DNA from: an uncultured virus (IMG/VR IMGVR_UViG_3300027782_006468)
Taxonomy: Duplodnaviria; Heunggongvirae; Uroviricota; Caudoviricetes
Virus record (IMG/VR): IMGVR_UViG_3300027782_006468
Coordinates: 1 to 64,000 of that record
Reading direction: 5' to 3' (one strand)
Length of the DNA stretch: 64,000 nt
The translations under genes were made by a program, and so were the position numbers. Each line of letters begins with the position of its first letter. Within the stretch, counting starts at the first letter, position 1. Positions 21,257 through 42,358 of the stretch are shown piece after piece. The notes below the pieces were generated by a model, which was not told the DNA's origin, ran no database searches, and saw nothing but the letters and a program-made list of their open reading frames with translations.

Positions 21257-23974
21257 TTATTCCTCTAAACACTTTTCAAATTGTTTCAAAACTTCATCAT
21301 CCGTTTGATATTTTTCATCATCAGAGGCAGGGTTTTTCAACACAATAACCCTAAAATCTAACTCCTTAGTTGGATATTTCTGTTGCCATCTTTTGTTTGG
21401 ATCTCTCAGATTCCTTTCTAATGAATACCCATTAAATCCTCCAGATGGCGGAGAAAGCCTCACTCTAAGTAAGTTATCTTTCTTTAATTCTTCTTCCCAT
21501 CTAAAAACATCTTCTTCCCAAAAGAATATTCTGTTTTTTTCTCCCATAGCATCTTCGGCTTCTATAGAGATATAATCTTTTCCATTTTTGGTTTTGTTTT
21601 TTTTTGTAGACAAAACTTTAATCTCGACAGGAACAATGCAATTTTCATGTTCCCGCAAAATTTGAAATGTATACCCCTTAAAATCAGAGCTTTTCTCCAA
21701 GTCATGTTCCCATGCAAATCCATAATATTTCAACTCACAAGATGAAACGCTTCTCAATTCTTTGGCAAATGTTTTATCTATCTGATGATCATCGGAATTG
21801 AAATCAACAAGTTTTGGCAAATCAAAAACCTTAGATTCATCAAACTTTTTAATCGCCCTTTGTCTTCTTGCCCATATTTTTTTCAATTCTTTTAACTTAT
21901 TGTAAGTTTTCTTGACCAACATTTTTTTATAAAATCTTTCAGTCTGAACTTCTACAAAGTCATCAGTGCCTTTGACCTTAATATATTCAACCTCAATTCT
22001 TCTTTCTCCAGTAGTACTTTCGACAATTTTTTCAGTTTCTATGATTTCATCAATATCATATTTTTTCCATTCTGGATCATCGAAAACATTATCGCCAACC
22101 AAATCAGTTAACTTTCTAGATTCTCCAACACAAATTTTAGAAAAATCTTCTTCGTAATTTTCCATGCCGTCTATAAATCTTTTTCTCTTGTCCTCTATTT
22201 TTTTAACAGCAGATTTATAATGTTCGTAAAATTTCCAAAGCGTAATTGGATCAGCATCTTTGAAGCAACGCAATCCAACAAGTGCTTTTAATATGCTAGC
22301 ATCTGTTCCAAACTTAAAAAGAAAATCTTCAAAATTTGCATATGGCTGATTATCAACAATTTTTTTCGCTGGTATTTCTCCTACGCCTTTAATGTTTGAC
22401 AATCCATAATAGATAACATCATCAACAAGAGAAAAGGTTTCTTTAGACTTATTTATATCGACCTTTTCCATCTCAACATCATGCCGTCTTGCCTCTATCT
22501 TGTAGTCCTTTATTTTATCGCTCAATGTTTCGCAGCTAAGAACAGCAGCGTAAAATTCTTGAGGATGATGAGCCTTTAGATATAATAATCGAGAAGAAAC
22601 ATAGGTATAAGCAACGGAATGACTCATATTGAAGCCATATTCTGCGAAAGATTTTATCTGTTCCCACAAGCTCTGAACTTCTTCCTGAGTAGCATCTAGA
22701 TTTTTTTGTCCATTTTCAATAAACATAATTTCATATTTCTTAAAAGCTTCTGCCTTCTTTTTAGAAATAGCTTTTCTTACAACTTCACAATCTCTTAAAG
22801 GAATTTCACCAACAATATTTAAAATTTTCATAATCTGTTCTTGAAAAACCATAACTCCATATGTGTTTCCAAGAATAGGCTCAATCAATGGATGTAAGGT
22901 GTATTCTTCTTCTTCTTTTTTTCTTTTCGTATATCTTTCATGCATTAACATGCCAAGAGGACCGGGGCGATACAAAGCCGTATATGCAACTAAATCTTCA
23001 AATCTATCAACACCACCAGCTTTTACCAATCTTCTTATGCCTTCTGAATCAAATTGAAATATGCATTTCAAATCACCTTCATTTGCCATAGCCAAAGATT
23101 TTTGATCATTTCTCCAAGAAGAAACATCTGTCCAATCAGAGTCATCATTGTTAGCACATATGCTTTTTATATTTTTTCTTTTTTTGACCAATTCGCAACA
23201 TGTAGATATTTGTTTTAAATTAGAAATTACAAGCAAATCAAATTTAACCAAACCTACTGGTTGTAAGTCTTGACCATTAAGACCTTCCACCCAAGCAGAT
23301 GCTTGCGGATTATCTTTTCTTTTTACTAATGGAACCATATCGGACAAAGGAACTGAACTTATAATCAAACCTCCAGCATGTTGACCCATACCTCTATTTC
23401 TATTGATTAACTTGTGTGCTGCCGCAGTTGCTTCGGGATGATCTTCACAATATTTTTTCAATTTTGGATACAATTCCATGGCAGATTCCCATGTCATAAC
23501 ATTCCCATCTTCATCTTTTGAATCAAGATTCTTGGTAAGTTCAAGTATTTCTTCTCTAGGATTGTCATGAACCCGTGCCATATCAATCAAGGCACTCTTC
23601 ATTCCAAAAGTTGTATAGTTGCTAATATTACAAACATATTCTTCACCAAAAGTTTCTAAAGCCCACTTGTTTTTTAAATAATCACGAACTTCAGACAAAT
23701 AATCCACATCAATATCTGGCATATCGCCTTGGACAAATTTTGGATCAACATCGACATTAAAATCATCACATATACCAAGAAGCCAAGGAACAATGATATT
23801 GTTTGTATTTTTAAATTTATTTTTCTCGCTAAATAATTTCAAAAAATATTCAGCTTTTCCTTGAACATCTATTTCTCGAAGCTCCCACTCAAGCCTTTTG
23901 CGATATTTTTCTCCAAGATTTCTTTTGTCGAAAACATGCCACAAACCTTTTTCTAATTTTTGAAAAGCATTCAT
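21257..23974 (-). CDS. dnaE: DNA polymerase III alpha, C-terminal part (catalytic palm, fingers, HhH, OB)
   Basis: MPDIDVD, GQHAGG, GLVKFDLL, IFQFDS, ALYRPGP, VFQEQIM, YGFNMSHS, GLSNIKGVG; no PHP domain; GGAG RBS. Confidence 0.93.
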   Translation of the reverse strand: MNAFQKLEKGLWHVFDKRNLGEKYRKRLEWELREIDVQGKAEYFLKLFSEKNKFKNTNNIIVPWLLGICDDFNVDVDPKFVQGDMPDIDVDYLSEVRDYLKNKWALETFGEEYVCNISNYTTFGMKSALIDMARVHDNPREEILELTKNLDSKDEDGNVMTWESAMELYPKLKKYCEDHPEATAAAHKLINRNRGMGQHAGGLIISSVPLSDMVPLVKRKDNPQASAWVEGLNGQDLQPVGLVKFDLLVISNLKQISTCCELVKKRKNIKSICANNDDSDWTDVSSWRNDQKSLAMANEGDLKCIFQFDSEGIRRLVKAGGVDRFEDLVAYTALYRPGPLGMLMHERYTKRKKEEEEYTLHPLIEPILGNTYGVMVFQEQIMKILNIVGEIPLRDCEVVRKAISKKKAEAFKKYEIMFIENGQKNLDATQEEVQSLWEQIKSFAEYGFNMSHSVAYTYVSSRLLYLKAHHPQEFYAAVLSCETLSDKIKDYKIEARRHDVEMEKVDINKSKETFSLVDDVIYYGLSNIKGVGEIPAKKIVDNQPYANFEDFLFKFGTDASILKALVGLRCFKDADPITLWKFYEHYKSAVKKIEDKRKRFIDGMENYEEDFSKICVGESRKLTDLVGDNVFDDPEWKKYDIDEIIETEKIVESTTGERRIEVEYIKVKGTDDFVEVQTERFYKKMLVKKTYNKLKELKKIWARRQRAIKKFDESKVFDLPKLVDFNSDDHQIDKTFAKELRSVSSCELKYYGFAWEHDLEKSSDFKGYTFQILREHENCIVPVEIKVLSTKKNKTKNGKDYISIEAEDAMGEKNRIFFWEEDVFRWEEELKKDNLLRVRLSPPSGGFNGYSLERNLRDPNKRWQQKYPTKELDFRVIVLKNPASDDEKYQTDDEVLKQFEKCLEE

Positions 23975-24048
23975 AAGTAACTCCAAATAAAATGAATTAA
24001 TATTGTATCACGAAATCTAAATAAATCTAGTCAACAAAAGGAGCATAT

Positions 24049-24420
24049 ATGAATTCATCAAAAGAACAGATATTAAAACTTTCTGGTTTGATAAACGAAC
24101 AACAAGCAGAATTGTCAATTGAAGAATTTGCAGAAAAAAGACATGCTGGTGCAGAAAAAATTGCAAATGCCGCAAAAGAAAAAGGTGGCGTTGCATTACT
24201 TACCTATGATCATTTTCATGTCAAATTACCTTATTACAAAAAAACATCAGAAGGAAAATTCAATCGTAAAAAACTTCAAGAAGAATATAAAGAGTTATGC
24301 TCTGAGCTTCATTCCTATATGGATGATATCGCAAGTATAGACCAATCTAAATTTCAAAAATTAGTTGGCAAAATAGAAGTTGTAGGAGAATTGCTTATAA
24401 AAAACAAAAAGAGCCTCTAG
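24049..24420 (+). CDS. hypothetical protein
   Basis: 123-aa ORF with AAGGAG RBS and CTAAATA upstream. Confidence 0.7.
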   Translation: MNSSKEQILKLSGLINEQQAELSIEEFAEKRHAGAEKIANAAKEKGGVALLTYDHFHVKLPYYKKTSEGKFNRKKLQEEYKELCSELHSYMDDIASIDQSKFQKLVGKIEVVGELLIKNKKSL

Positions 24421-24444
24421 AAAACTAGAGACTCTTTTTTTTTT
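24406..24444. terminator. bidirectional intrinsic terminator (stem fully paired on minus strand)
   Basis: GAGCCTCTAG-AAAA-CTAGAGACTC flanked by A and T tracts; the plus-strand C.A mismatch is a U.G pair on minus. Confidence 0.85.
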
Positions 24445-24650
24445 GACTTCGATTTAAAGTTGCTCAAGATCCGATCCCGATCTCGATTAATTTTGGCGAG
24501 TTACTAAGGAATGTGTGGAAAACTAAAACCCACACTTGAAAGTCAACACAACTTTATTCTTTCAGTCTATCTCTGTGCCAGAGTCTCAAATTTGCCAAAT
24601 TTAAGAATAAGAGTTTTGCACTTTAGTTTATTTAAAGAACACGAAGTCGT
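24445..24650 (-). ncRNA. candidate structured ncRNA (~205 nt), 6S-like topology
   Basis: Non-coding gap whose ends pair (GACUUCG/CGAAGUC), with nested stems AAAGUGC/GCAACUUU and AAUUUGGC/GCCAAAAUU and several internal hairpins; ends at a minus-strand terminator. Confidence 0.5.
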
Positions 24651-24662
24651 GGCTAAGATTGA

Positions 24663-25169
24663 TTACTTATTTTCTGGTAATGGTTTAAATTCAATAATAG
24701 GCTTTGAATCTTTTATAGGATCAACTTGTGGCTTCGAAGAGTCTGTAGCCTTGCTTGGCATCGTCTTTTTTGGATTTTGACTAGCTCCGCTAACAGCAGG
24801 ACAATTCATATCATCACAAGCTTTGTGATAACCTTCTTCATAGGAAATGGTTCGAACATAGTCAACTTGATCCATTCCACGATAATATCCACTATGCCAA
24901 ATTGAAGAAATTTCATTTTCTTCTGGTTTTACATTATTGACAATAGATAATATTCCTTCAATCTTTCCTTGTCCTTTTGCATTTTCCATCATGCCATCAC
25001 GATGACTATTTATTTGACTGTATAATAACTCTGTGTAACCGCTTTGTTGCAAACGATCTTTTTGATCCATCAAGTTAGTAATATCCTTATATGTGTCAAT
25101 TCGATAAATTTGATACGCATTGACAATCAAAGAAAATCCCAAAACAGTACACAAAACATAATTGCTCAT
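24663..25169 (-). CDS. membrane-anchored hypothetical protein
   Basis: N-terminal TM segment; GYYRG/YEEGY repeats; GAGGAG RBS. Confidence 0.7.
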   Translation of the reverse strand: MSNYVLCTVLGFSLIVNAYQIYRIDTYKDITNLMDQKDRLQQSGYTELLYSQINSHRDGMMENAKGQGKIEGILSIVNNVKPEENEISSIWHSGYYRGMDQVDYVRTISYEEGYHKACDDMNCPAVSGASQNPKKTMPSKATDSSKPQVDPIKDSKPIIEFKPLPENK

Positions 25170-25316
25170 CCCACTCTCCTCAAATTAAATAGTCCTTAAA
25201 TTCAGTAACGAAAAGTAAAATATCACATTTTTTTTTTAAAATCAAGTCATTGAGACAATTATTTTCATATTTCTTCCTTATATATAAGGAAAGACATTCC
25301 GTAAGAGGAGATTACC

Positions 25317-26285
25317 ATGGCGTTTAAGAAATTTAGAGAATATTTAAAAGACGAAAAAAATATCGTTGAAAAACCAGAAGTGCAAAAAGTTCCCGACTAT
25401 AAAGGACCTTCTAGCTCTGCTCCACCACAAGCAAAAATGGATAAAAATGCTGGTGGTCATGGTTACAAGGGTTCTGCAAAGCCTTACAGTGCAGGGAAAA
25501 ATGCTGCCAATCCAAACAAATCAGAAAAAGGATTTGCACACGAAGGCGACAAAGATCTGAAATATGAACCTAAAGTCGATGTCGATACTAAAGATCCAGC
25601 AAAAGGCGAAGAACTTAAATCTTGGCATAAATCCAAAAGTGTATCTGAATGGCTCCAAAAAACACGCAAATTAAGCAATGCTGGCTTTATAAAAGGAATG
25701 CAAAATGAAGGTATTGCCTATGGAGTTATAAAAGAAACTATAACCGAATGTGCAAAATCAAATAGAAATGTCGCTCAACTTGTCATGGAAATGAAACGAA
25801 ATAAATTGCTTAAATCTTTGATTTCTGAGATTTGCAGTCACGAATCTGCAATTCCTGCGATTCTTTCAGAAATCAAAAAAAATAGTTTGTTCTTAAAGTA
25901 CTTAAATGAATTTCATGATATGGACCATGATGAAAATAATAGTGATGATGAAGAACCTATGGAAATGGATGATGAAGAACCTATGGAAATGGATGATGAT
26001 GAATCCATGGGTGATGACGATGAATCCATGGGTGATGACGATGAATCCATGGGTGATGATGATGAATCCATGGGCGATGACGATGAATCCATGGATGATG
26101 ACGATGAATCCATGGGTGATGATGATGAATCCATGGGTGATGATGATGAATCCATGGGTGATGACGATGAATCCATGGGCGATGATGATGACGAATCTGC
26201 TCTTTCCAACCCAATTGGAAAACACCATGCAAGAAAAGCATTGAAAAAAATGGGACCACCACCCGGTCCTTCTAGTGAATTCTAA
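25317..26285 (+). CDS. hypothetical protein with capsid-targeting-like N-terminus and acidic repeat tail
   Basis: MAFKKFREYLKDE start; GAGGAG RBS; DDDESMG repeats. Confidence 0.8.
   Translation: MAFKKFREYLKDEKNIVEKPEVQKVPDYKGPSSSAPPQAKMDKNAGGHGYKGSAKPYSAGKNAANPNKSEKGFAHEGDKDLKYEPKVDVDTKDPAKGEELKSWHKSKSVSEWLQKTRKLSNAGFIKGMQNEGIAYGVIKETITECAKSNRNVAQLVMEMKRNKLLKSLISEICSHESAIPAILSEIKKNSLFLKYLNEFHDMDHDENNSDDEEPMEMDDEEPMEMDDDESMGDDDESMGDDDESMGDDDESMGDDDESMDDDDESMGDDDESMGDDDESMGDDDESMGDDDDESALSNPIGKHHARKALKKMGPPPGPSSEF
25944..26197 (+). repeat. coding tandem repeat: 2 x 24 nt (DDEEPMEM) then 9 x 21 nt (DDDESMG)
   Basis: GATGA(T/C)GATGAATCCATGG(GT/GC/AT) units seen directly. Confidence 0.95.
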
Positions 26286-26319
26286 AAAAAGCAAGCTCCG
26301 AAAGGGGCTTACTTTTTTA
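26284..26319 (+). terminator. intrinsic terminator
   Basis: AAGCTCC-GAAA-GGGGCTT stem with GNRA loop followed by a T tract. Confidence 0.85.
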
Positions 26320-26350
26320 TAGCAGGAGGCTTTATCATAGCAGGAGGCTA

Positions 26351-27043
26351 ATGATTTTACATGGAAGTAAAGAAAAAATCTTAATTTGTATGCCCACCTA
26401 TCACTCTAAAATGGAGTGGCTTGTTCGATCTGTAGATTCATTGCACTTTCAAACATATAAGAATTTTGATTGCTATGTTGTAAAAGATGGATGCTCAGAA
26501 TCATGCACATTTACCAATTTTGAAAAAACATGTATTGAATGTGCAGATTGCAAAAAAACAAGAATATTTTTTGAAAAAGTTTGCAAGGCAGATTCTAGAT
26601 TTAAATTTTTTACATTGCCAATACATCATAGCGGTGCAGGTTGGGGTCCAAGAAATTTTGCCATCATGAATACACATCACAATTACATTGGATATCTTGA
26701 TGATGATAATTGGTATGAAAAAGATCATATAGAATTACTTTATAAAACAATAACTGAAACCAAAAGCGACATGTGCTACACAGGAACCAGACTTTACGAT
26801 CACAACAAAAAAGTTGTCGGAGAAAGAATTCATAATGATATTCCAAAAGCTGGTTATATAGATACTTCTGAGATTATGCACACTAGATACCTTATAGAAA
26901 AACACGGAGGTTGGCGCTATGTAAAAAAGTGCAATGATTGGGATATAGTTTCAAGATGGGTTCCCGATGTGAAATGGAGTCACACCAACAAGGTAACACT
27001 TAATTTCTTTCTGAGGGATGGATGCGGAATACACAGGAAATAA
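26351..27043 (+). CDS. family 2 glycosyltransferase
   Basis: ICMPTY, YVVKDG, PRNFAI, IGYLDDDN, IDTSEIMH, DWD. Confidence 0.9.
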   Translation: MILHGSKEKILICMPTYHSKMEWLVRSVDSLHFQTYKNFDCYVVKDGCSESCTFTNFEKTCIECADCKKTRIFFEKVCKADSRFKFFTLPIHHSGAGWGPRNFAIMNTHHNYIGYLDDDNWYEKDHIELLYKTITETKSDMCYTGTRLYDHNKKVVGERIHNDIPKAGYIDTSEIMHTRYLIEKHGGWRYVKKCNDWDIVSRWVPDVKWSHTNKVTLNFFLRDGCGIHRK

Positions 27044-28302
27044 AACAGTTCATCCAGAAGTGGAAAAACTTCACCGATCCTTCCACGCAAATTCCTTACG
27101 ACTACAAACCAATATGCAAAGATTTACTTCTACACGATGAAGAACTTGTTGTCGAAACAATAGACATACTGAAAAGAAACATATCGTCTTGGGCAGAAAA
27201 AAATTCCGAAATTTATGAAAGTAAAAAAGCCTTTACTTTTTTGGAAAAAAAAGATCTCAACGATAAAAGCAAATGGTATGTAAAATCCTTGGAAAAGGAA
27301 TCCATGCCAATGAAAAGTAGCGGAAGCACCACTGGCGAGGGATTTGAATACTTGCGATGGGAACCTTTCCTTTATTTCATCGAAGGAGAAAACCACTACG
27401 ACCTTATTCTGGATGAGTACGAAATACCACAGAACCCACACATCATGTACTTTTTTAATTCCTCGTTCGGAAGTGGTCCAAGACACATAAACAACACATC
27501 GAAAAGCAAGAACTTCATGGAACACCACGGAACGAAAAGAACCGCAATGGTTCATTATGCAAACACAAAACTCCAAAAAGAAAAAGAAGAAGTATTCCAA
27601 AAATATCTACTCAAGTATTTAAATGCAAAAAAAATGGATGTAATATTCGCTCCCGGTCCACAAATAAAAAAAATATGCTCTTATATAAAAAAGGAAAACT
27701 ATAAGGGTAAACTGTGCAACTTGTTAAGTAATAGCAATGAGAAACTTCTAGATGAGGATGCTAAGTTCCTTCTGGAAAACAAATATGTATCACATATATG
27801 CGACCACATGCGGTGTTGGGATGGTGGTGCTTCATTCTTCACATGCAAAGACAAGAACTATCACTTGATGGACAACCTTTCTTGGTGTGTCGAAAACGAA
27901 GAAAGACTTATATCAACCGATTACTTCTCCTTGGCTTGTCCTTTCGTAAAATTCTGGAATGGCGATAGGTGCAAGATAGGCGAGAAATACCAGAGATGTT
28001 CTTGCGGAAGGTTGTACAGAGATTTTAAATTCTTAGAGAATCGACCCTTCGCCATAAAAGGGCATTCGATCAACGAGTATAAGAAAAAGCTCATGGAAAC
28101 TGGTCTTACAGAGATAAAACAGGTGAATTGCGGAAATGATTTCATAGAGATCGTATCTAATAAGGAAATAGATCCATCCAAGAAAGATGAAGTTGCCAAA
28201 ATATTTAAGTCTCACAAGTTGAGATTCAAGGTTATTCCAGACCAAATATTGGCATCGCAAAAAGTACAGAACAGAAATCCATCTGGAAAGGATGGAGACT
28301 AA
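27022..28302 (+). CDS. phenylacetate-CoA ligase/CapK-like adenylate-forming enzyme (divergent)
   Basis: KEDL-like EKKDL, SSGSTTG P-loop, LISTD, PFVKFWNGD, CSCGR. Confidence 0.7.
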   Translation: MRNTQEIKQFIQKWKNFTDPSTQIPYDYKPICKDLLLHDEELVVETIDILKRNISSWAEKNSEIYESKKAFTFLEKKDLNDKSKWYVKSLEKESMPMKSSGSTTGEGFEYLRWEPFLYFIEGENHYDLILDEYEIPQNPHIMYFFNSSFGSGPRHINNTSKSKNFMEHHGTKRTAMVHYANTKLQKEKEEVFQKYLLKYLNAKKMDVIFAPGPQIKKICSYIKKENYKGKLCNLLSNSNEKLLDEDAKFLLENKYVSHICDHMRCWDGGASFFTCKDKNYHLMDNLSWCVENEERLISTDYFSLACPFVKFWNGDRCKIGEKYQRCSCGRLYRDFKFLENRPFAIKGHSINEYKKKLMETGLTEIKQVNCGNDFIEIVSNKEIDPSKKDEVAKIFKSHKLRFKVIPDQILASQKVQNRNPSGKDGD

Positions 28303-31300
28303 ATGATAGATCCAAAACTGGTAGAAAATTGGAATATAATTTTCGCACTTGCCGACAAAGCTTGTGGGCATTTCGCAACATATGAAGCAATAGTCCTTGT
28401 GCCACGACCTTGTACCGGAGGGTCAAGTGCTTATTGGACTCTTGGTACTTCTTGTCCAGATGGTTGCACATCTTCTCCTCCTTCTGAATTGCCAACAAAT
28501 CCTCCATGCGATCCTAATTACCCTGATAATGGAACGGAAAATGACATAATCGGGTGCTGCGGAGGGATAGTTGAAGTCGAATGCACTGGAACCTGCTGTA
28601 ACTGTGGTGGAGTTCAATGCGAACCATCAGAGACATGCTGCGACAATGTTTGCGTGGACTTGCAAACGGATCATGACCATTGTGGCGGTTGCCCTATAGT
28701 TTGCGAACCTTCAGAAAGCTGCAAGAATGGTGTTTGCAAAGGCGCTTGTGCTTCGAGCAACTGCTCATGGACTTGGAGCGAAGGCTGTCAGGCTGATTGT
28801 GCTTATGTCCTCCTTGATGGTGTGTATGTGCAGAATCAATTTTGCACAGAAGGATCAAATTGCATTTGTCCTGCCGCTCCTGCCGTAACCGAATCATCAC
28901 CACTTTATGTATACATTTCTTGTGTTGGAAATCCAAGACCATCGGGTGTTTGGTCACAGACTTCGACATGCCCACAGGGATGCACCTGTCCAGAAGAAGC
29001 ACCAACGACAAATGGAACGACAAATGGTCAAGTTATAACCCATGAATGCGTCAGTTGCTCCCCTCCATGCGGAGAAGGACAAGACTGCTGCGGTGGCGAA
29101 TGCAAAAACATATATGAAGACAGCAATAATTGTGATGGTTGCGGAAATGTTTGCCCTGAAGCAACACCAACTTGCTGCAATGGCGAGTGCTGTGTGTCAA
29201 ACAATTGTTGTTCGGTTGATGGAACAAATACTTGTATTGATGTTATGAATGATCCAAATCATTGTGGTGATTGCATAACATTTTGCAGCGGTCCAGAAAC
29301 TACAACGCCACAAAAGTGTTGCCATGGCGAATGCAAATTCACAGAAACAGATAATGAAAATTGCGGATCTTGTGACTTTCCTTGTCCTGTCGGATACACA
29401 TGCTGTTTTGGTGTATGCAAAGAACTATATGGTGATGATCGCTTGAACTGTGGCGATTGTGGTAAAACTTGCCCTGTCGGAGAGTTTTGTAAAGATGGCA
29501 ATTGCGTAGACCCTTGTACGCTGGAGGAATGCTCATACACATGGGATGCACAAACATGCACATTCATGTACAATAACCCAAATGGGTATAAAATATGTTC
29601 TGGAACTGCGGTCATGAAATGGGTTCCAACTGGACCTCCTAGCGACCCTGATTCAATAACTGGTACATGTCCGGGTCGTTGGGATACAGTAGTTCCATGC
29701 GAATATTCAGATAACTGCGGTTGTATAAATGGGTATGGGTTTGAACAAACTATTGGACCATGCTGGGAATATACACAAGAATGCTATTGTGGTCAGAGAA
29801 ATGATGTAATCACTCCATGTGGCGCAATTTTCCCTGTTCTAGATCCAGTTATAGGTTGGGCAGGAGGAACATGGGAACAGTTAACCGACTGCGATGGTTG
29901 TCCAAAACCAGTAGATCCTCCTGCAATACCAGCCTGTATGGGACAAACTTACAGTTTCAACTGTGCAGGATCTTGGATCTACAGACCATGCCCAAGCTGC
30001 GTATGCCCAATAAACGAGCCACTTCGAGAAGGAACACCAAATGAAAAAGTTTCTTCTCCCTGTAAAAACTGTGATCCAGCTTGTGGTGCCAATCAAAAGT
30101 GTTGCAATCATGTTTGTAAAAACATACTTACAGATGTTCGTAATTGCGGAGATTGCGGAAGAGATTGCGGATCTGCTGCGGGAACCGCTTGCTGTAGGGG
30201 AACATGCGTAAACACACTTACAGAAGAACTTTACTGCGGAGGTTGCAATACCGTTTGTGCATGGTCAGAAACTTGTTGCAATGGTTTTTGCAAAGATACT
30301 CACACAGACCCTGCTAACTGTGGTAGTTGCGGACATCCTTGTGCTGCTGGCGAAGTTTGCTGTAATAGTTTTTGCGTAAACACAAATACCGACAGAAATA
30401 ACTGTGGAAGTTGCCCATTTGTATGTCCCAACGCAGATAAGTGCATTGACGGAAGATGCGTTCCATGCGACCCCCCATGTCTAGAAGCTGGAACCGCTTG
30501 CTGCAACAATTCATGCATCGACATATTGTCTGACGAGAACAACTGCGGTGGTTGCAACATACCCTGTGCTGGCAAATGCTGCAATGGGTCTTGCGTATTA
30601 GATTTGAACACCATGTACAACTGTGGTGATTGCGGAATAGCGTGTCCGCAAATGATCAACCAGATCAATCTGTGGCAGTGCTGCAATGGTCAGTGCAAGA
30701 ATCTAAAAACTGATCCAGAAAACTGCGGTTTTTGCGGAAGAGTATGTCAAGAGCCTCCGGGTGACACATTTAAAGTTCCAAAATGTTTCTTGGGAAACTG
30801 TGCAGAACCAGAATGTGTATGTTTGGGAGGGGAAACCCCCGGACCTGACGATGTTGTTTTCGTATCCACATGCCTTGGGAACACGATAAGCTGTGAGGGG
30901 TCTTGTTATTTTGAGAATGTGGGCGGAAGTTGGGTTCTTCATGAAGAGCCGGGCGGAACTGGATTTTCTGGATCTTGCGGAAAAGAACCAGACTACACAT
31001 ATTGTGTTGATGACAAATATGCCTGTGTTGGAGATATATATTATTGCGTAAAACCCATAGAAGGACAAGATATGCCAACTTATTGTATACCAAAACCATC
31101 ATTTGACCCATTAGCACAAGCACTAATCGGATCGTATATCGGAGCAGAAAACTGTGCTGCTGGTTGCAGCGGGGATGGAAGCTGTCCAGACGGTTGTGCA
31201 AACGGATTGACCTGTTGTAATACGGAATGCGTGGACACGCAAACGGACAGTGCCAATTGCGGTGGTTGTGGTGGCGGTCCTTGTGCCTCTGATGAGACTT

Positions 31301-34300
31301 GCAAAGACGGAGCTTGCACGGGTTGCCCTTCTCCATGTGCCGAAGACGAATCGTGCTGCGAAGGAGGAACGACATGCTGCAAGGTCTGCTGTAATGATGG
31401 GTGTTGTGCGGATACCGATCATTGCGGAGAAGGTGGTGCATGCACTCCATGCGAATGTACCGCTGGACAAACCTGCTGCGGTCCTAATTGTTGCGATCCG
31501 GGAAAAGAATGCTGTGGTTCTGGAAGTAGTGCAACATGTTGCACCGGAGATCAATACTGCGATGGAACTGGACACTGCGCATCATGCAACCCAGTATGCT
31601 ACCCGAACGAAACATGCTGCGGTGCGTCTGGATGTATAGCAAACAAGTGTGGCGACTGTCCTAATTCGTGTCCAGAAGGAATAGTTTGCTGCGGTCTTCC
31701 TCACCACGAGGTGTGTTGCGGCGAAGGTCAAACTTGTGTCGATAATAAATGTTACGGATGTACGCCTCCTTGTTCGGAAAGTCAAGATTGCTGCGATGAG
31801 GTGTGTACCGAACTTGGAACCGACACAGATTGTACTGGTTGCGGTGCAGCTTGCGGAGAAGGAACAAAATGTTGCGGTGGCTCATGCATAGATGTGATGG
31901 ATGATGTGAACAATTGTGGTGGTTGCGGTGTCGTGTGCGAGGAAGATGGTGCAACTCCTCTTTGCTGCGATGGAACTCCGACAGCAAATGGAACGAATGA
32001 AAATTGCTTGAGTTGCGGAGACACAGCCGATCCAGACAATGCGACAAACCCTACATCATGCTGTCCTAAAGCAGTTGTTGTTGCTGGCGCTCCAGACACC
32101 TCGACTTTCTTTGTTACCGCTACAAACAGTGACGACAAGAATTGCGGTGGTTGCGGAAATGTTGCTGACACATCGCCACAAGTGCAAGAAAAATGCTGTG
32201 CGGGTGAAATCGTTAGCCTTTTGACTGATCCAGACAACTGTGGAGGGTGTGGCGTTAGGGTTGTTGATCCTATGAGTTGCTGTCCAAGTTGGGGTCCGCC
32301 AAATCAGTTTGGCGATCTACCAACACCAACCTCTGGTCCAGTAAACACACAAACAGACAACGACCATTGCGGCGGTTGCAACATCCCATGCAATCCAATA
32401 GAAACTGGTGATGACTGCCCACCTCCCGGCGCTCCACCAACGACAAAATGCAAGGATGGCACATGTGTGCCATGCGGAACATGCAAGCTTCCGACAGAAC
32501 AACAACAAGCACAATTGTTGGGATCTCAACCAACTGTATGGGGGTCACACACGACCATACCATGCACCTATGACGGATGTCCTATGCCGGTAACCGATCC
32601 GCCAACTCCTGCCCCTCCGGGGAAAACATGCTTCGGTGGCTGTGACTACAAAGCGGTAGGAAATGTTGGAAACCTGTCATGGGAACTGGTTGGTTGCGAA
32701 TGCTACGACTCTTGCACACTTCCAGAATGCAACGCCTCAAATCCACATGCCACTCCATGTCCAAGTGTTGGAACCTGTTCTGGAGAAGGACCTTGCGGCG
32801 GATGCCTTTATGACGACTATGACCATCCTTCTGCATACAAATGCTTCGCGCCATGGGGTCATGATACTGTTAGCTGCGGGAGTCTCTATAACTATAGTAG
32901 TACATTTGGCTATTGCTGTACGAAAGACGCAAATCATCCAAATGGCGGAGTTCTATGTCTTAGTGGCAGTTGTTCAGGTGCTGCGGGAGACTGCGAACCT
33001 TGCGGCGGATCATGTGCCGCAGGACTTACATGTTGCGGGGTTTTTCCGAATGATGTGTGTTTGAACCTGAAAACGGATGAAAGTCATTGCGGATCATGTA
33101 CGAATGTTTGTGCCGCAGGAGAGACATGCTGTAATAGCTCATGTAAAAATACCAACACAGACAATAACAATTGTGGCGGTTGCGGTATAAAATGCAGTGG
33201 AGTTTCGGAATGTTGCAATGGCAGCTGCAAAGTTCTAAACACTCCAACTAATTGTGGTGCTTGCGGAATAGTATGTACTGTCCTTGAACCACTCTGTTGC
33301 AACAATAACTGCACACCGTCTGATGAATTCAACTGCGGAGGGTGCGGAAGAACATGTGATGCTGGTGAAAAATGTTGTGATGGTGAATGCACAGAGGTGA
33401 TGGGCGATGACGAATCTAACTGCGGTGATTGTGGCTTTACTTGTGCTTCTAGTGGAACTTGCTGCTCTGGCGAATGTATCGAAAACCAATGCGGAACATG
33501 TCCTACTGCATGTACCGAAGGTCAGGGATGTTGTGGTACGCCTCCAAATCTAACTTGCACCGATCTTGGAACAGACGAAAACTGTATCAGTTGTGGCAAT
33601 GCTTGCGCTGCAGGAACGAAATGTTGCTTTGATGGAGTTGAAAACTTATGCATATCAGTAATGGGTGCTGATAAAAATAACTGTGGCGATTGTAACATAA
33701 TTTGTGAAAATAATGAACGATGTGAAGACGGTGTATGCATAAATTTAAGTGAAGGGTGTGATCCGGAATGTGTTGAGGGAGAAGAATGTTGCGAAGGAAC
33801 TGCCTGTTGTAGTCTGCCAGAATTTCAATGTTGCTCTGGCTCATGTACTGCCGTTTTCTCTTTCCAAACAGATAGTTCCAACTGCGGAAGTTGTGGAAAC
33901 GCTTGTGCTGCTGGCGAGCAATGTTGCAATGGCGATTGTATTGCCACTAGCTCTTTCCAAACAGATGAATCTAATTGCGGAACTTGTGGTAACGCTTGTT
34001 CCGGAAGCCAAACTTGTTGCTCTGGCTCATGTATCGCCACTAGCTCTCTCCAAACAGATGAAGCAAACTGCGGAACTTGCGGAAACGCTTGTGGTGCTGG
34101 TGAAACATGTTGCTCTGGTGTTTGTAAAGCACTTCAAACAGATGAAGCTAATTGCGGAACTTGCGGAAACGCTTGTGGTGCTGGTCAAGAATGTTGTAGT
34201 GGTGTTTGCAAAGCCGTACAAACTGATAGTTCCAACTGCGGAACTTGCGGAAACGCTTGTTCCGGAAGCCAAACATGTTGCTCTGGATCATGTATCGCCA

Positions 34301-36267
34301 CTAGCTCTCTCCAAACAGATGAAGCAAACTGCGGAACTTGCGGAAACACTTGTTCCGGAAGCCAAACATGTTGCTCTGGATCATGTATCGCCACTAGCTC
34401 TCTCCAAACAGATGAAGCAAACTGCGGAACTTGCGGAAACGCTTGTGCTGCTGGTGAACTATGTTGTTCTGGTGTTTGCAAAGCCGTACAAACAGATGAA
34501 GCTAATTGCGGAACTTGCGGAAACGCTTGTGCTGCTGGCGAACTATGTTGTTCTGGTGTTTGCAAAGCCGTACAAACAGATGAAGCTAATTGCGGAACTT
34601 GCGGAAACGCTTGTTCCGGAAGCCAAACTTGCTGCTCTGGATCATGTATCGCCACTATCTCTCTCCAAACAGATGAAGCAAACTGCGGAACTTGCGGAAA
34701 CACTTGTTCCGGAAGCCAAACATGTTGCTCTGGCTCATGTATCGCCACTAGCTCTCTCCAAACAGATGAAGCAAACTGCGGAACTTGTGGTAACGCCTGT
34801 AGTGCTGGCGAACTATGTTGTGGTGGTGTTTGTAAAATCGTACAAATAGATGAAGCTAACTGCGGAACTTGTGGTAACACTTGTGGTCTTGGTCAAGAAT
34901 GTTGTAGTGGTGTTTGTAAATCATTACAAACAGATGAATTTAATTGCGGAACTTGCGGAAACACTTGTGGTGCTGGCGAACTATGTTGTTCTGGTGTTTG
35001 CAAAACCGTACAAACAGATGTAATAAACTGCGGAACTTGTGGTAACACTTGTGGTCTTGGTCAAGAATGTTGTAGTGGTGTTTGCACAGTATTTCAAATA
35101 GATGAAGACAATTGCGGAAGTTGTGGAAACGCTTGTGCTGCTGGAGAAACTTGTTGTAATAGCGTTTGCACAGTATTACAAACAGATGAAGGTAATTGCG
35201 GAATTTGCGGAAACATGTGTGGTGCTGGTCAAGAATGTTGCTCTGGTGTTTGTAAATCAGTACAAACAGATGAAGCTAATTGCGGAACTTGTGGAACTGT
35301 ATGTGGTGCTGGTCAAGAATGTTGCTCTGGTGTTTGCAAATCAATACAAACAGATGAAGAAAATTGTGGAACATGTGGAACTGCATGTGCTTCTGGCTAC
35401 ACATGTTGCTCTGGTGTTTGTAGAAACACAGCAACCGATCTCAGCAATTGTGGAACATGCGGAAGCTCTTGTAGCGGAACATGTTGCAACGGCTTTTGCA
35501 AAGCGACATATGAGGATGAATTAAATTGTGGTGATTGCGGAATAGAATGTGCTGTTGGCGAAACATGTTGCTATAGCATCCTTTTGAACACTGGAGTTTG
35601 CAAAGCCGTACTAACAGATGAAGCTAATTGTGGAACTTGTGGAAACACTTGTGCTGCTGGTTACACATGTTGCTCTGGTGTCTGCAAAGCACTTCAAACA
35701 GATGAAGCTAATTGCGGAACTTGCGGAAGTGTATGTTCTGCTGGCTACACATGTTGTGATGGTGTCTGCAAAGCACTTCAAACAGATGAAGCAAACTGTG
35801 GAACTTGCGGAAACGCTTGTGCTGCTGGAGAAACTTGTTGCTCTGGTGTTTGTGCAAATACAGAAACAAGTTCATCTAATTGTGGATCTTGCGGACACGC
35901 TTGTGCTGCTGGAGAAACTTGCGAAGAAGGAATTTGCTCTCTGCCTCCACTAACAATAAAATTAGTTTTCCGTGCTTTCGCATGTGCAAGTAATTTTTCA
36001 AATCTTTCAAGTGAGCTTTCTGCTGGATCTAGAAGTGTTAGCTTCACAATCACTGTCAGTGGAACTACTTTTGCCAGTGGTTCTGTTTCAAACATTGGAC
36101 CCGGAGGAGTTGCAGCAACCTTAGCATCAATTACGATTCCAACAGGAACATCATTTAATATAAATATAAGTGGATATGCTGGATCTGCAATTATTGGTAG
36201 TACTAGAGCATCTGGTCAACTGACTTATACTGGTGCTGTTAAAACTGCAGATAATAATGCATGTTAA
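28303..36267 (+). CDS. giant cysteine-rich protein (2654 aa) with STIG1-like CCxGxC..TDxxNCGxCGxxC repeats
   Basis: Single uninterrupted ORF; dozens of repeats; GGAG RBS; Cys-poor beta-rich C-terminal domain. Confidence 0.9.
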   Translation: MIDPKLVENWNIIFALADKACGHFATYEAIVLVPRPCTGGSSAYWTLGTSCPDGCTSSPPSELPTNPPCDPNYPDNGTENDIIGCCGGIVEVECTGTCCNCGGVQCEPSETCCDNVCVDLQTDHDHCGGCPIVCEPSESCKNGVCKGACASSNCSWTWSEGCQADCAYVLLDGVYVQNQFCTEGSNCICPAAPAVTESSPLYVYISCVGNPRPSGVWSQTSTCPQGCTCPEEAPTTNGTTNGQVITHECVSCSPPCGEGQDCCGGECKNIYEDSNNCDGCGNVCPEATPTCCNGECCVSNNCCSVDGTNTCIDVMNDPNHCGDCITFCSGPETTTPQKCCHGECKFTETDNENCGSCDFPCPVGYTCCFGVCKELYGDDRLNCGDCGKTCPVGEFCKDGNCVDPCTLEECSYTWDAQTCTFMYNNPNGYKICSGTAVMKWVPTGPPSDPDSITGTCPGRWDTVVPCEYSDNCGCINGYGFEQTIGPCWEYTQECYCGQRNDVITPCGAIFPVLDPVIGWAGGTWEQLTDCDGCPKPVDPPAIPACMGQTYSFNCAGSWIYRPCPSCVCPINEPLREGTPNEKVSSPCKNCDPACGANQKCCNHVCKNILTDVRNCGDCGRDCGSAAGTACCRGTCVNTLTEELYCGGCNTVCAWSETCCNGFCKDTHTDPANCGSCGHPCAAGEVCCNSFCVNTNTDRNNCGSCPFVCPNADKCIDGRCVPCDPPCLEAGTACCNNSCIDILSDENNCGGCNIPCAGKCCNGSCVLDLNTMYNCGDCGIACPQMINQINLWQCCNGQCKNLKTDPENCGFCGRVCQEPPGDTFKVPKCFLGNCAEPECVCLGGETPGPDDVVFVSTCLGNTISCEGSCYFENVGGSWVLHEEPGGTGFSGSCGKEPDYTYCVDDKYACVGDIYYCVKPIEGQDMPTYCIPKPSFDPLAQALIGSYIGAENCAAGCSGDGSCPDGCANGLTCCNTECVDTQTDSANCGGCGGGPCASDETCKDGACTGCPSPCAEDESCCEGGTTCCKVCCNDGCCADTDHCGEGGACTPCECTAGQTCCGPNCCDPGKECCGSGSSATCCTGDQYCDGTGHCASCNPVCYPNETCCGASGCIANKCGDCPNSCPEGIVCCGLPHHEVCCGEGQTCVDNKCYGCTPPCSESQDCCDEVCTELGTDTDCTGCGAACGEGTKCCGGSCIDVMDDVNNCGGCGVVCEEDGATPLCCDGTPTANGTNENCLSCGDTADPDNATNPTSCCPKAVVVAGAPDTSTFFVTATNSDDKNCGGCGNVADTSPQVQEKCCAGEIVSLLTDPDNCGGCGVRVVDPMSCCPSWGPPNQFGDLPTPTSGPVNTQTDNDHCGGCNIPCNPIETGDDCPPPGAPPTTKCKDGTCVPCGTCKLPTEQQQAQLLGSQPTVWGSHTTIPCTYDGCPMPVTDPPTPAPPGKTCFGGCDYKAVGNVGNLSWELVGCECYDSCTLPECNASNPHATPCPSVGTCSGEGPCGGCLYDDYDHPSAYKCFAPWGHDTVSCGSLYNYSSTFGYCCTKDANHPNGGVLCLSGSCSGAAGDCEPCGGSCAAGLTCCGVFPNDVCLNLKTDESHCGSCTNVCAAGETCCNSSCKNTNTDNNNCGGCGIKCSGVSECCNGSCKVLNTPTNCGACGIVCTVLEPLCCNNNCTPSDEFNCGGCGRTCDAGEKCCDGECTEVMGDDESNCGDCGFTCASSGTCCSGECIENQCGTCPTACTEGQGCCGTPPNLTCTDLGTDENCISCGNACAAGTKCCFDGVENLCISVMGADKNNCGDCNIICENNERCEDGVCINLSEGCDPECVEGEECCEGTACCSLPEFQCCSGSCTAVFSFQTDSSNCGSCGNACAAGEQCCNGDCIATSSFQTDESNCGTCGNACSGSQTCCSGSCIATSSLQTDEANCGTCGNACGAGETCCSGVCKALQTDEANCGTCGNACGAGQECCSGVCKAVQTDSSNCGTCGNACSGSQTCCSGSCIATSSLQTDEANCGTCGNTCSGSQTCCSGSCIATSSLQTDEANCGTCGNACAAGELCCSGVCKAVQTDEANCGTCGNACAAGELCCSGVCKAVQTDEANCGTCGNACSGSQTCCSGSCIATISLQTDEANCGTCGNTCSGSQTCCSGSCIATSSLQTDEANCGTCGNACSAGELCCGGVCKIVQIDEANCGTCGNTCGLGQECCSGVCKSLQTDEFNCGTCGNTCGAGELCCSGVCKTVQTDVINCGTCGNTCGLGQECCSGVCTVFQIDEDNCGSCGNACAAGETCCNSVCTVLQTDEGNCGICGNMCGAGQECCSGVCKSVQTDEANCGTCGTVCGAGQECCSGVCKSIQTDEENCGTCGTACASGYTCCSGVCRNTATDLSNCGTCGSSCSGTCCNGFCKATYEDELNCGDCGIECAVGETCCYSILLNTGVCKAVLTDEANCGTCGNTCAAGYTCCSGVCKALQTDEANCGTCGSVCSAGYTCCDGVCKALQTDEANCGTCGNACAAGETCCSGVCANTETSSSNCGSCGHACAAGETCEEGICSLPPLTIKLVFRAFACASNFSNLSSELSAGSRSVSFTITVSGTTFASGSVSNIGPGGVAATLASITIPTGTSFNINISGYAGSAIIGSTRASGQLTYTGAVKTADNNAC
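33865..35930 (+). repeat. tandem array of 84-nt (28 aa) and 93-nt (31 aa) coding repeats
   Basis: Near-identical CAAACAGATGAAGC(A/T)AA(C/T)TGCGGAACTTG(C/T)GGAAAC units. Confidence 0.95.
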
Positions 36268-36301
36268 AAAAACAGGCTTGAAAATCAAGCCTGTTTTTTT
36301 T
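36266..36301. terminator. bidirectional intrinsic terminator
   Basis: AAAAAAACAGGCTTGA-AAA-TCAAGCCTGTTTTTTTT between convergent genes. Confidence 0.9.
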
Positions 36302-36320
36302 CTTTAATTTATAATTTTTT

Positions 36321-36623
36321 CTATTCTTTGTAGGCTACCCATCGGTTACGAACAAATAAAAGATTTGCAAAAAACCCGCAAAAGGCAGAAATGAGATTTC
36401 CCGCAAACGGAACATATAGTTCGCCTACTGGATTAAGCACGAATGAAATTCCCAATGAAAACCAAAAACTGCTGCATTCATGGCAGAGCATTGGAACATT
36501 AACATACGGTATCTTGGCTACCAAGTTTCTAAAAGGTCGTGCAACATCGGTATCAGACCAAGCGTAAGCGACACCAAGACATGTGACCAAATAAATCAAA
36601 AACATCATAGGAAATATACCCAC
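36321..36623 (-). CDS. small membrane protein with CxxC (DUF1360-like)
   Basis: Three hydrophobic segments; PFRNLV...LCHECSSFW. Confidence 0.55.
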   Translation of the reverse strand: MGIFPMMFLIYLVTCLGVAYAWSDTDVARPFRNLVAKIPYVNVPMLCHECSSFWFSLGISFVLNPVGELYVPFAGNLISAFCGFFANLLFVRNRWVAYKE

Positions 36624-37024
36624 ATATAGTCAAATTCTCGAACAACAGAGAAACTTCTGAATGTTTTTCCAACAATAGTCTTGTTGAAATTAGCCCAAGC
36701 TTCATCACCAAGCTGAACCTTGAATACTTTGCCACCAATAGCATTGTTTACTCTTTTTAGCCTAATAGCTTCGAGTTCTTTGACTATCGCAGCCTTGTCC
36801 TTGTAATACTTTTCCAAGATATTCGGATCAGTAGTCACTTTATCTGAAAAGAACTTGCCAACCTTACCTCTGCATGAGCAGTTTGGGTTGGTCTTTAATG
36901 TTGTTAGGTCGGCAAGAATATCTGGAAATTCCGCCTTTAGTTCAGCGAATGAACTTTCGTCCTTGATGATCATATAGATGAGATCTGGCATCGTGCCAAG
37001 ATCTACAGTGATTGTAGTTTCCAT
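36605..37024 (-). CDS. hypothetical protein with NPNCSCR motif
   Basis: 139-aa ORF overlapping the membrane-protein gene. Confidence 0.7.
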   Translation of the reverse strand: METTITVDLGTMPDLIYMIIKDESSFAELKAEFPDILADLTTLKTNPNCSCRGKVGKFFSDKVTTDPNILEKYYKDKAAIVKELEAIRLKRVNNAIGGKVFKVQLGDEAWANFNKTIVGKTFRSFSVVREFDYMWVYFL

Positions 37025-37075
37025 AAAATTAATATAGTTTTATTGTTTTATTTTTTTGATTTTTAAAAATATTTT

Positions 37076-38438
37076 TTACAAATCAAAACAAATAGATCTA
37101 CCGCCTCTAGCCTCAGACATGAATCGACTAAACAAAAGACCTTCATATACTGGATCTACATCAGTAATTCCAAGACAATAGCAAATTAAAGAACCACAAG
37201 CACTTCCCCTTCCGGGTCCAACAGCTTGAGTTCCATCGCCACCTATATTTTCTCTGCACCACCTTCTTGCTTCATCAGTCATCATCTTTTGAATAAGAAA
37301 ATATGTACTAAAACCTTTACGAGTTATAAGGCTCAACTCTTCAATTATTCTATTTTTATACTCTGTAGTCATTGGCAAATTACGATGTTTAAATCCTCTC
37401 AAGACTTCATCCTTAAGCCTTTGGTCACAATCTGGAAATATAGGTAGTTTCAGACTTCTATCTAATTCGACACCTTTTGCTTTACGACAAATCTCTACTG
37501 TATTTTTTTTAGCTTCGCAAAAAATTTCATAAGGAATAATATCTTTATAATCACTCAGCCACTTTTCATTAAGTTCTTCCTCAGATTTCATCCATAAATT
37601 AGCATCCTGCAATTCGAAGAAATCCTGCATTGAATCTTCTTTCATTGCCCTTTGAATTTCTTTTAATGTTCTGTTGGTCTGAACCATCAACATAAGTCTT
37701 TGCAAGTGACTATCTTCTTTACGGCAATAATGACAATCTTGCGTAAGAATAATCTTCAATCCAAATTTCTGCTTTGCTTTAACAATAAAAGCGTCATAAG
37801 GTTTTTGTTTAACAAAATCTAAAAGCATAATTTCAAGCAGATAATTTTCTTTACCAAACATCTGAATGTATCGTTCTATCATTTGAAATCCAGCTTCTTC
37901 TCCGCCAGCATCAAATGCTCTGCCAACTTCGCTGTTATAGCAACAACTTGTAAAAAATAAGCCTTCTTTATGCTTCTCAAGTTGTTCGTAATTTACTCTT
38001 GGCTTTCTATAAAATCCTTTCGTCCAACCCCAAGATGTCAAACGAACAAGATTTTTATATCCAGTTTCATTGTATGCTATGGCTAATAAGTGTGGACTTG
38101 CTCTCAGTTCCAATAATTCACTTGGAGAGAGAGATTCAGAAAATTTTTGCATGTCTGACAAAGAAGAGGATTGCGGTTGCAATCTATTTACATAAAGTTC
38201 CGCAGCGAATATGGGAGAAAGTTTATTTTTCCCATATTTATCACATATCTTTTCGCATGCTTTAATTTGTCTGGGAACTGCTCCCAACATGCCATGATCA
38301 CTAATTGTAAGAAAATTTTGATTTATTTCTGTAGCACGAACCGAATATTCTTCGCATGTTCCAAGCCCATCGAGGACGGAAAAATCGGAGTAACTAATGA
38401 AGGTGGAGATGTTCAAAACCAACAATCTCCACCTTCAT
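37076..38438 (-). CDS. dnaE: DNA polymerase III alpha, N-terminal part (PHP domain and start of palm); frame interrupted by 7 nt after codon 14
   Basis: AAGGAG RBS, ATG 38438 MKVEIVGFEHLHLH then TAGTTAC, then in another frame SDFSVLDG, ISDHG, HLLAIA, GFYRKPR, TQDCHY, VGPGRGSACGS, LLFSRF. Confidence 0.88.
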
Positions 38439-39253: not shown

Positions 39254-39255
39254 AA

Positions 39256-39282: not shown

Positions 39283-39326
39283 TCACAATTATTTCAATCT
39301 TTTAGACGGTTCTGCAGAATTAAAAG

Positions 39327-42352: not shown

Positions 42353-42358
42353 GTTCTA

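Follow-up and report, generated by a model that had tools for sequence, protein, structure and literature searches.

A replicative DNA polymerase III alpha divided between two distant phage genes with a duplicated junction, probably a two-chain enzyme

How can a replicative DNA polymerase function when its gene lies in two pieces 13 kb apart? The question is raised by a stretch of 64,000 nucleotides (nt) from an uncultured virus of the Caudoviricetes (positions 1 to 64,000 of the IMG/VR record IMGVR_UViG_3300027782_006468; hereafter the window). It encodes DnaE, the family-C DNA polymerase III alpha (Pol III alpha), as an N-terminal and a C-terminal part, here termed the N-half and the C-half. 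An earlier note on this DNA had proposed that the two genes form a true split without an intein, with a duplicated junction, and the current study bears this out. We consider it quite probable that the phage makes its DnaE-type Pol III alpha as a non-covalent two-chain enzyme, with an active site built in trans. The window belongs to a 76.9-kb viral record, estimated to be 16% complete, which also encodes PhoH, DnaJ, IF3, peptide deformylase, PrkA/DUF444/SpoVR, ThyX, RecA and gp32 and is part of the genome of a huge lake-water phage.

Only two matches to DNA_pol3_alpha (PF07733) occur in the whole record, both in minus-strand open reading frames (ORFs), with profile positions 3-98 located at 37106-37417 and positions 100-259 at 23231-23725. 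The polymerase is encoded by two ORFs, 13 kb apart, and the single polypeptide that defines DnaE is not what this locus contains. The parts of the two genes are as follows.

37076-38389, minus strand: main body of the N-half, with the PHP domain, the first part of the palm, GRGS (37213-37202), the LLFSRF helix, the tail SICFDL and TAA (37078-37076)
23720-23974, minus strand: leader of the C-half, 85 amino acids (aa), a second copy of the palm segment lacking GRGS (KRLEWE..YFL..NNIIVPWLLGI..VDP)
21257-23719, minus strand: body of the C-half, with PDIDVD (23719-23702), the remaining palm with the third Asp, thumb, fingers, helix-hairpin-helix (HhH) and C-terminal region
24002-24010, minus strand: extended -10 element TGATACAAT upstream of the C-half

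The N-half is an open frame at 37076-38425 (minus strand; 449 aa), with its PHP domain (PF02811) at aa 13-200 (E 7.1e-30). It ends in ...GPGRGSACGSL...LLFSRFMSEARGGRSICFDL directly before the stop codon, and its alignment to Taq Pol III alpha reaches residue 458. The earlier note had drawn this half at 37076-38438, and both the PHP domain and GRGS do lie there, but a single open frame from 38438 does not, as a 7-nt gap intervenes at 38396-38390. The C-half ORF spans 21257-23986 (minus strand), with its ATG at 23974 and a product of 905 aa. Its MPDIDVD, at its own residue 88, aligns with Taq residue 460; profile positions 100-259 of DNA_pol3_alpha likewise start at aa 88, and the fingers (PF17657, E 2.8e-39) and HHH_6 (PF14579, E 7.3e-12) are both carried on this chain. 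The break therefore falls between GRGS and PDIDVD, i.e. between the nucleoside triphosphate (NTP)-binding and Mg-binding subdomains.

Invariance was scored across 37 N-half and 39 C-half sequences. Among the N-halves, the R-G-S of GRGS never varies, GPGRGS and LLFSRF are both kept intact, and D40, H41, E73, H109, C158, D227 and H229 are invariant at the PHP ligand positions; we take these residues to be metal ligands on the basis of DnaE structures. Among the C-halves, P86, D87, D89, D91 and the Asp246 of KFD are invariant. Hence, the GS motif and the three catalytic Asp residues are all present and invariant, yet divided over two chains, just as had been suggested. The C-half also possesses the signals of its own that had been noticed previously, a ribosome-binding site (RBS; GGAG, 23984-23981) and the -10 element TGATACAAT (24010-24002), and a divergent plus-strand gene starts nearby at 24049. 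A generic sigma-70 promoter scan revealed no enrichment (54 sites versus 52.2 +/- 7.3 expected). In the window, the N-half and the C-half are separate transcription units 13 kb apart.

The absence of an intein is equally evident, as no intein or Hint family matches either half at E<=0.01. The residues characteristic of split inteins (Cys/Ser1, HN and the +1 nucleophile) are missing from the C-terminal tails of the N-halves (N-tails) as well as from the leaders, and an Rfam scan of the window returned 0 matches, including no intron family.

Within the public phage collection, LR756511.1 (595 kb) is the nearest match; it encodes an intact DnaE of 1179 aa in a syntenic neighborhood and provides a convenient ruler for the junction. 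The N-half covers residues 19-433 of this protein at 53.6% identity and the C-half covers residues 326-1173 at 40.6% identity; since the two matches overlap at residues 326-433, this segment is represented twice in the window. A direct blastp comparison of the leader with the N-half tail yields 31% identity over 51 aa (E 0.003), while a profile of 26 leaders aligned to a profile of 34 N-tails (hhalign) yields 93.8% and E 1.8e-7 over 45 columns. Against the same segment of 13 intact relatives, the leader profile reaches 95.5% and E 1.6e-8 over 67 columns. In this alignment, NIIVPWLLGI of the leader lies over GSLVCYCLGI with the GPGRGS loop deleted, and the LLFSRF..AR helix is also missing from the leader. 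The proposed duplication of the junction is thus confirmed. In contrast, the leader had been described as eroded, which does not agree with its conservation: it is 83-91 aa long with a Met at a conserved place (27 distinct relatives), its residues R27, E31, Y43, N56, N58, N59 and G83 are invariant (26 sequences), and its ratio of nonsynonymous to synonymous substitutions (dN/dS) is 0.12-0.41 versus 0.03-0.17 for the following 200 codons (pairs with unsaturated dS). Both halves and the leader are under purifying selection. To judge from these alignments, the leader truly duplicates the palm segment found at the end of the N-half, and this second copy is conserved. The N-tails are more conserved than the leaders. 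Nearly all of them stop ~5-40 residues past RGG(R/K) and include a stretch, (I/L)x(L)(E/R)F, that resembles a strand; the shortest form, SICFDL, belongs to the sub-group of the window.

A search for N-half homologues, limited to proteins of 246-786 aa at E<=1e-3, identified 922 N-half-sized proteins, and the details of the family were read from the best 120 relatives of each half. The best 120 N-half homologues share 65-100% identity and are nearly all 400-490 aa in length, whereas PHP is present in none of the best 120 C-half relatives. Among proteins larger than 786 aa, those at >58% identity are without exception N-halves that contain inteins; fingers and HhH are confined to proteins at <=58% identity, several of which derive from contigs of 587-623 kb. 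Genomic context was available from 61 related IMG/VR loci, with the 3' end of the N-half included in 59 of them. The C-half starts downstream on the same strand in 33 of these 59 loci, at distances of 962-9321 nt (median 4983), and 21 of the remaining 26 have <9 kb of sequence downstream of the N-half. In three of the last five, a search of the whole record placed the C-part ~12-13 kb away. The 13-kb spacing of the window is therefore lineage-specific, its relatives typically having 1-9 kb, but the breakpoint itself recurs in related phages as well as in a more distant clade described below. In one locus (L034), a C-half piece lies on the strand opposite to the N-half, which suggests a local inversion.

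Pairwise identities among N-halves and among C-halves correlate strongly (r 0.90; Mantel test, 0/2000 permutations; 16 phages), and the halves are co-inherited. An intact replicative Pol III alpha encoded elsewhere, beside two decaying halves, would have undermined the split, but the record of the window contains two PF07733 pieces and no more, as do 5/5 of the large relatives, and dN/dS is well under 1. Taken across these homologues, the split is old and common to a large clade of huge aquatic phages and to a second, far clade. The window sequence itself was detected in freshwater sequencing runs from 19 studies, and two RNA runs contain 0.28 and 0.09 of the sampled words from it.

Several of these relatives carry true inteins, although at other conserved motifs of both halves and none at the split. 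Among the best 120 N-half homologues, an intein-type Pfam family is recorded for three and a fourth bears the name intein; these elements sit inside GPGRGS (directly before its Ser) or in PHP, away from the break. The PHP site follows SPIFA, and additional intein sites are found in the C-half near aa 347/364 and 453/455. The intein-bearing relatives are the proteins P0039, P0080, P0100 and P0105 and the loci L018, L019, L022, L023, L026 and L030.

Library-wide scoring uncovered further N-half-sized proteins with 33-38% identity that end at the same place, e.g. ...RFLSPSRGGRQMDFSF before the stop codon. One far group (26-29% identity to the N-half of the window) has a C-half located 0.85-2.3 kb downstream, and its leader (RLKFE..KQGA..YW..N.N.LVLPWLLG..DPI) matches that of the near clade, i.e. 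the split forms of the window and its closer relatives, at 99.2% and E 1.2e-19. When the far N-halves P0372 and P0377 were used for locus searches, every hit was either a near-clade member or a contiguous form. As a separate observation, 2-4 conserved small ORFs lie on the same strand between the far-clade halves (L073-L081); they are unrelated to the gap gene of the near clade, and motifs among them include ELKHS..H..M.GPS.QL in one and CG..LL..GLGGS in another.

In a tree of the C-region, the near split forms constitute one clade (support 99), with 13 intact forms adjacent and paraphyletic, while the far-split forms are sister to the near split and intact forms together (95/99) and more distant intact DnaEs fall outside. 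In the N-region tree, split and intact forms constitute one clade (100), whose nearest neighbors are mostly far-split. An approximately unbiased (AU) test rejected a single clade of all RGG-tailed N-halves (p 1.2e-7). The nearest intact DnaEs, from phages of 590-620 kb, thus appear on these trees beside or within the split forms, and the pattern implies either one ancient split that was later re-fused or repeated entry of related cassettes. A tree rooted on Streptomyces and Rhizobium phage DnaEs was set aside: its root fell inside the split forms, but the outgroup branches measured 1.2 and 4.5, making the root unreliable.

The N-half is broken a second time near its start. The frame of the ATG at 38438 reads MKVEIVGFEHLHLH and then TAG, and after a gap of 7 nt the coding sequence resumes in the +1 frame at SDFSVLDG. 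The elements of this region are the following.

38459-39286, minus strand: HNH endonuclease gene directly upstream of the N-half start (phrog_559, E 1.8e-17)
38397-38438, minus strand: first 14 codons of the N-half (MKVEIVGFEHLHLH), carrying the HxH metal ligands of PHP; RBS AAAGGAG at 38450-38444
38390-38396, minus strand: stop-led gap TAGTTAC, 7 nt, between CAT (His14) and TCC (Ser)
38387-38447, minus strand: hairpin of 24 bp, one side of which comprises the Shine-Dalgarno (SD) sequence, AUG and codons 2-5, and the other side codons 10-14 together with the stop and gap

The identical seven bases recur in near-identical contigs from other assemblies. The hairpin has a minimum free energy (MFE) of -40.6 kcal/mol (z -6.9) that was matched by 0/200 shuffles; the helix of the window is an extended one, in which SD and AUG pair with CAU-UAG and the gap. 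We examined 55 distinct 5' ends of the N-half, 45 of which could be classified, with MFE calculated over the 48 nt upstream.

No extra bases (n=19): upstream MFE -2.8 to -10.1 kcal/mol
5-8 extra bases, with a stop directly after the His codon (n=18): upstream MFE -18.3 to -25.2 kcal/mol
In-frame CTC TAA CTT a few codons later (n=3): weak upstream folding
Inserts of 40-54 nt with their own GC hairpin, e.g. GAC TGA ... GAA TTT in L040 (n=5): MFE -12.0 to -22.6 kcal/mol

Among the classified 5' ends, the upstream hairpin is found only together with a short gap. Its stem exhibits compensatory changes (AAGGTGGAGAT/ATCTCCACCTT, CAAGTGGAGAT/ATCTTCACTTG and CAGGTGAAGAT/ATCTTCACCTG), the upstream peptide is preserved through synonymous changes in the gap-bearing lineages, and most short gaps end in an NAY triplet, like the His codon. 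Furthermore, an HNH gene is found at this position in 14 loci: a gap is present in 12 of them and absent from one, and one is unclassified. Recoding of the stop codon alone was considered as a rescue of the 7-nt gap and rejected, since the gap also shifts the frame. On comparative grounds, the ribosome probably hops across, and the arrangement fits a coding gap linked to a homing endonuclease that would be hopped or shifted over, as in T4 gene 60. In the available account of T4 gene 60, pairing of the mRNA leaving the ribosome is proposed as a forward drive of bypassing, and the available account of a Streptomyces phage terminase presents a bench-supported case of 10-nt bypassing. The alternative for the gap is an internal TTG start, which would give an N-half without the HxH ligands. 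The CTC TAA CTT variants (Leu-stop-Leu; L050, L056 and L061), which lie between SVL and LDG of the PHP motif and have no upstream hairpin, look like a matched-codon hop over a stop.

With these features in hand, several inferences can be made regarding how the two halves might work. One chain, the N-half, would contribute PHP and the associated metal ligands, the initial portion of the palm, in which GRGS binds the dNTP, and a tail that is short and strand-like. The other, the C-half, would contribute the 85-aa leader and, after it, PDIDVD as the catalytic strand, the third Asp, thumb, fingers and HhH. Presumably, the chains dock non-covalently, such that the GRGS of the first and the three Asp of the second constitute one active site, with the duplicated module and the tail probably serving as the docking surface. 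We regard an active site built in trans as the best reading because the split is real, lacks an intein and has a duplicated junction, the motifs are divided and the halves are co-inherited. Several points nonetheless weigh against it. Just outside the window lies a gene for a 464-aa protein whose only domain is that of a family-A polymerase (L082:1756-3150, minus strand, equivalent to G000:C1:68255-69649), and similar family-A ORFs of 441-456 aa are found in 4/5 of the large relatives. A whole N-half here requires either recoding or an internal start lacking the HxH ligands. The same module is present on both chains and only one copy fits the canonical place, and the C-half could be structurally self-sufficient. 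In addition, every record used, including that of the window, is a metagenomic fragment.

These points lend themselves to other explanations, which are best weighed together. Given the family-A gene, the split DnaE is not the sole polymerase of the phage, and one might suppose that the family-A enzyme replicates while both halves are decaying remnants, with the broken frame of the N-half in the window as a symptom. This is very unlikely, because dN/dS is well under 1, none of the catalytic residues varies, each half occurs in hundreds of intact copies, and the frame break is itself conserved along with a dedicated hairpin; rather, this conservation argues that the split DnaE is in use. Family-B polymerase (PF00136) was found in 0/5 of the large relatives (165-381 kb, 34-79% complete). 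A somewhat better case, albeit still an improbable one, can be made for halves that work apart, the C-half as a self-sufficient polymerase with the leader as a structural stand-in and the N-half as a free PHP exonuclease. Because the leader keeps the helices of the module, the C-half may be able to fold by itself, and the N-half is conserved at its PHP ligand positions. However, a free exonuclease has no need for invariant GPGRGS and LLFSRF, the two halves are strictly co-inherited, and the C-half has lost the GS loop, a defining motif of Pol-beta-like nucleotidyltransferases. Rejoining of the halves, whether by protein trans-splicing through a split intein or by RNA splicing, has the least in its favor and is barely credible. 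Cyanobacterial DnaE and the "fractured" DnaE loci do use split inteins, according to the available text of Dassa et al. (2009; PMC2677866), and the relatives of the window are rich in inteins, but those inteins sit elsewhere, and neither an intein family at either end nor an Rfam intron family in the window was detected. Moreover, no nucleophile is conserved at the first position of the tails (5-40 aa), some of which read GGRS and others GGKQ, and the leader ends in G(D/E)xPD without HN or a +1 Cys/Ser/Thr, being homologous to the palm and not to Hint.

The origin of the two-chain arrangement is a separate matter. The earlier note attributed it to duplication followed by reciprocal loss, which is one possibility; the layout fits a homing-type cassette of the MobA type equally well, because the upstream half has a C-terminal extension, the downstream half has an N-terminal extension that bears the copy, and intact relatives are interleaved. 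It is possible, and we hold it tentatively, that such a mobile cassette inserted between the GS and DxD motifs, adding the RGG..LEF tail upstream and, downstream, a leader in which the target segment is copied, much as T4 MobA did in the topoisomerase gene. The near and far clades would have been entered separately, the nuclease would later have been lost, and the intact lineages would never have been hit. This is supported by several observations: the near and far leaders are closer to each other (E 1.2e-19) than to the parental segment (1.6e-8 and 2.6e-4), the 13 intact forms in the C-region tree have the far-split clade on one side and the near-split clade on the other, the AU test speaks against one clade of RGG-tailed N-halves (p 1.2e-7), and an HNH-linked gap cassette sits at the 5' end of the same gene. 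In the available text on MobA, that element likewise brings both a C-terminal and an N-terminal extension along with a homologous region, with repeated insertions at one site. On the other hand, no nuclease family was recognized in the gap of the window, the far-clade gap ORFs are unannotated, and the contents of the gap differ between the near and far clades. The leaders have also diverged about as far as the gene bodies (33% versus 27-35%), and hence nothing points to a recent transfer.

That dnaE was duplicated in tandem, in part or as a whole, and that the copies then underwent reciprocal loss, all as a single ancient event, strikes us as rather unlikely, though far from negligible; it would make the intact forms inside the group secondary re-fusions through one in-frame deletion. 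The overlap of the halves on residues 326-433 of the intact protein is the pattern of a duplication, and RGG tails and N.N.L(V/L) leaders are common to the near and far split clades. Furthermore, ...SEAR joined to GDMPDID would restore the canonical LLF-to-PD spacing of the intact relatives, and the available text on MobA describes a split gene becoming one ORF again. Conversely, the paraphyletic intact forms of the C-region tree require at least one split plus re-fusion, or several, and traces of a tail or leader are absent from the intact proteins. The basal branches of the N-region tree are themselves unresolved (support 43). Considering both breaks jointly, we tentatively entertain the possibility that dnaE was hit twice by selfish elements, with the outcome that two chains dock via a duplicated, sub-functionalized palm module and a hairpin drives the ribosome over the 7-nt gap, while the intact forms of 590-620 kb may be re-fused. 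As part of that same tentative reading, the hop would parallel T4 gene 60 on a miniature scale and with a link to HNH, in length variants of 5, 6, 7, 8 and 40-54 nt at one site.

Glycosyltransferase genes and the gene of a giant repeat protein have come to fill the 13-kb interval that separates the halves. From the N-half toward the C-half, its contents are as follows.

36321-37024, minus strand: two small ORFs (139 and 100 aa) after the N-half, with no family match and homologues in 12 loci
36266-36300: terminator-like two-way hairpin with a 16-bp stem, an A-run and a T-run, between the N-half unit and the opposite-strand island
28303-36267, plus strand: Cys-rich protein of 2654 aa with 27 Stig1-like repeats
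26351-28302, plus strand: family-2 glycosyltransferase (230 aa) and an ORF of 426 aa without a family match
25317-26285, plus strand: P0123, a conserved gene of 322 aa

The Stig1-like repeat protein accounts for the higher GC content of the island (0.44-0.48 versus ~0.31 elsewhere). One near-identical contig encodes this protein at 100% identity and another at only 58%, and it looks like a fast-evolving or exchangeable gene. P0123 combines a conserved N-terminal part of ~200 aa with an acidic repeat tail (DDDESMG), and it has no match in Pfam, PHROG, solved structures or the atlas. Its homologues are located between the dnaE halves in 39/61 loci, mostly on the opposite strand, with L042 as a same-strand example. 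Pfam and PHROGs scans found no homing endonuclease among the gap ORFs of the window, the only families recognized being glycosyltransferases and Stig1 repeats. The space between the halves is a hot spot for the collection of cargo genes. Directly upstream of dnaE is a PrkA/DUF444/SpoVR trio (39560-44431, minus strand) that is syntenic with LR756511.1, and the window also includes IF3 (6989-7546), peptide deformylase (12871-13371) and full DnaJ (4080-5126) genes.

A replicative family-C polymerase with its nucleotide-binding motif and its metal-binding Asp residues on separate chains is a natural experiment on the assembly of a Pol-beta-like active site, as well as a ready-made two-part polymerase for enzymology. 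If hopping is how the 5' coding gap is read, translational bypassing, of which very few cases are known, would gain a large natural series. There is also a practical consequence: since hundreds of huge aquatic phages from two deep clades carry the split, gene callers and annotation pipelines will routinely report a "truncated" DnaE. Outside of supplements, we found no description in the literature of a full-length split of this kind or of a coding gap in dnaE.

Compared with single-chain DnaEs (Taq, 2HPI; E. coli, 2HNH/5FKU; M. tuberculosis, 7PU7; LR756511.1), the domains and motifs are the same and follow the same order of PHP, GS, DxD, third Asp, fingers and HhH, but here they reside on two polypeptides cut between Taq residues 458/460, with ~100 aa present in both. 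A split form has been reported among group 2.2 jumbo phages. As described in the available text of Iyer et al. (2021; PMC7824862), their "minimal" Pol III alpha is divided into an NTP-binding protein from the N-terminal side and a C-terminal protein that binds Mg and DNA, whose genes lie far apart and which were suggested to come together as a single enzyme; a family-B polymerase accompanies this form, and other Pol III domains are absent from it. Both forms are split between the NTP-binding and Mg-binding subdomains in distant genes, a comparison of the break that is by description and not by residue. Unlike that form, the phages examined here retain PHP, fingers and HhH, have family-B polymerase in 0/5 relatives, and possess a duplicated junction. 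The available text of Dassa et al. (2009; PMC2677866) describes split-intein and "fractured" DnaE in two genes, the fractured loci having another gene between the halves; those loci contain split inteins with all of the splicing residues and are spliced, whereas no intein motifs exist here.

Parallels also exist with the T4 gene 39, mobA and gene 60 element. For this, the available text of the study 10.1101/2022.08.31.505936 describes repeated insertion at one site, extensions that copy the target, and a "hit and run" re-creation of one ORF. The present locus departs from mobA in that no nuclease is recognized between the dnaE halves, the HNH gene lying upstream of the N-half instead. It departs from T4 also in the position and size of the gap-hairpin cassette, which is at the 5' end of the N-half and not at the split, and spans 7 nt versus 50. 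Despite these distinctions, the HNH gene and the stop-led coding gap behind a hairpin at the N-half resemble T4 gene 60, and, as in mobA, the gene of an essential enzyme is split, with a C-terminal extension on the upstream part, an N-terminal extension copying the target on the downstream part, and intact relatives interleaved.

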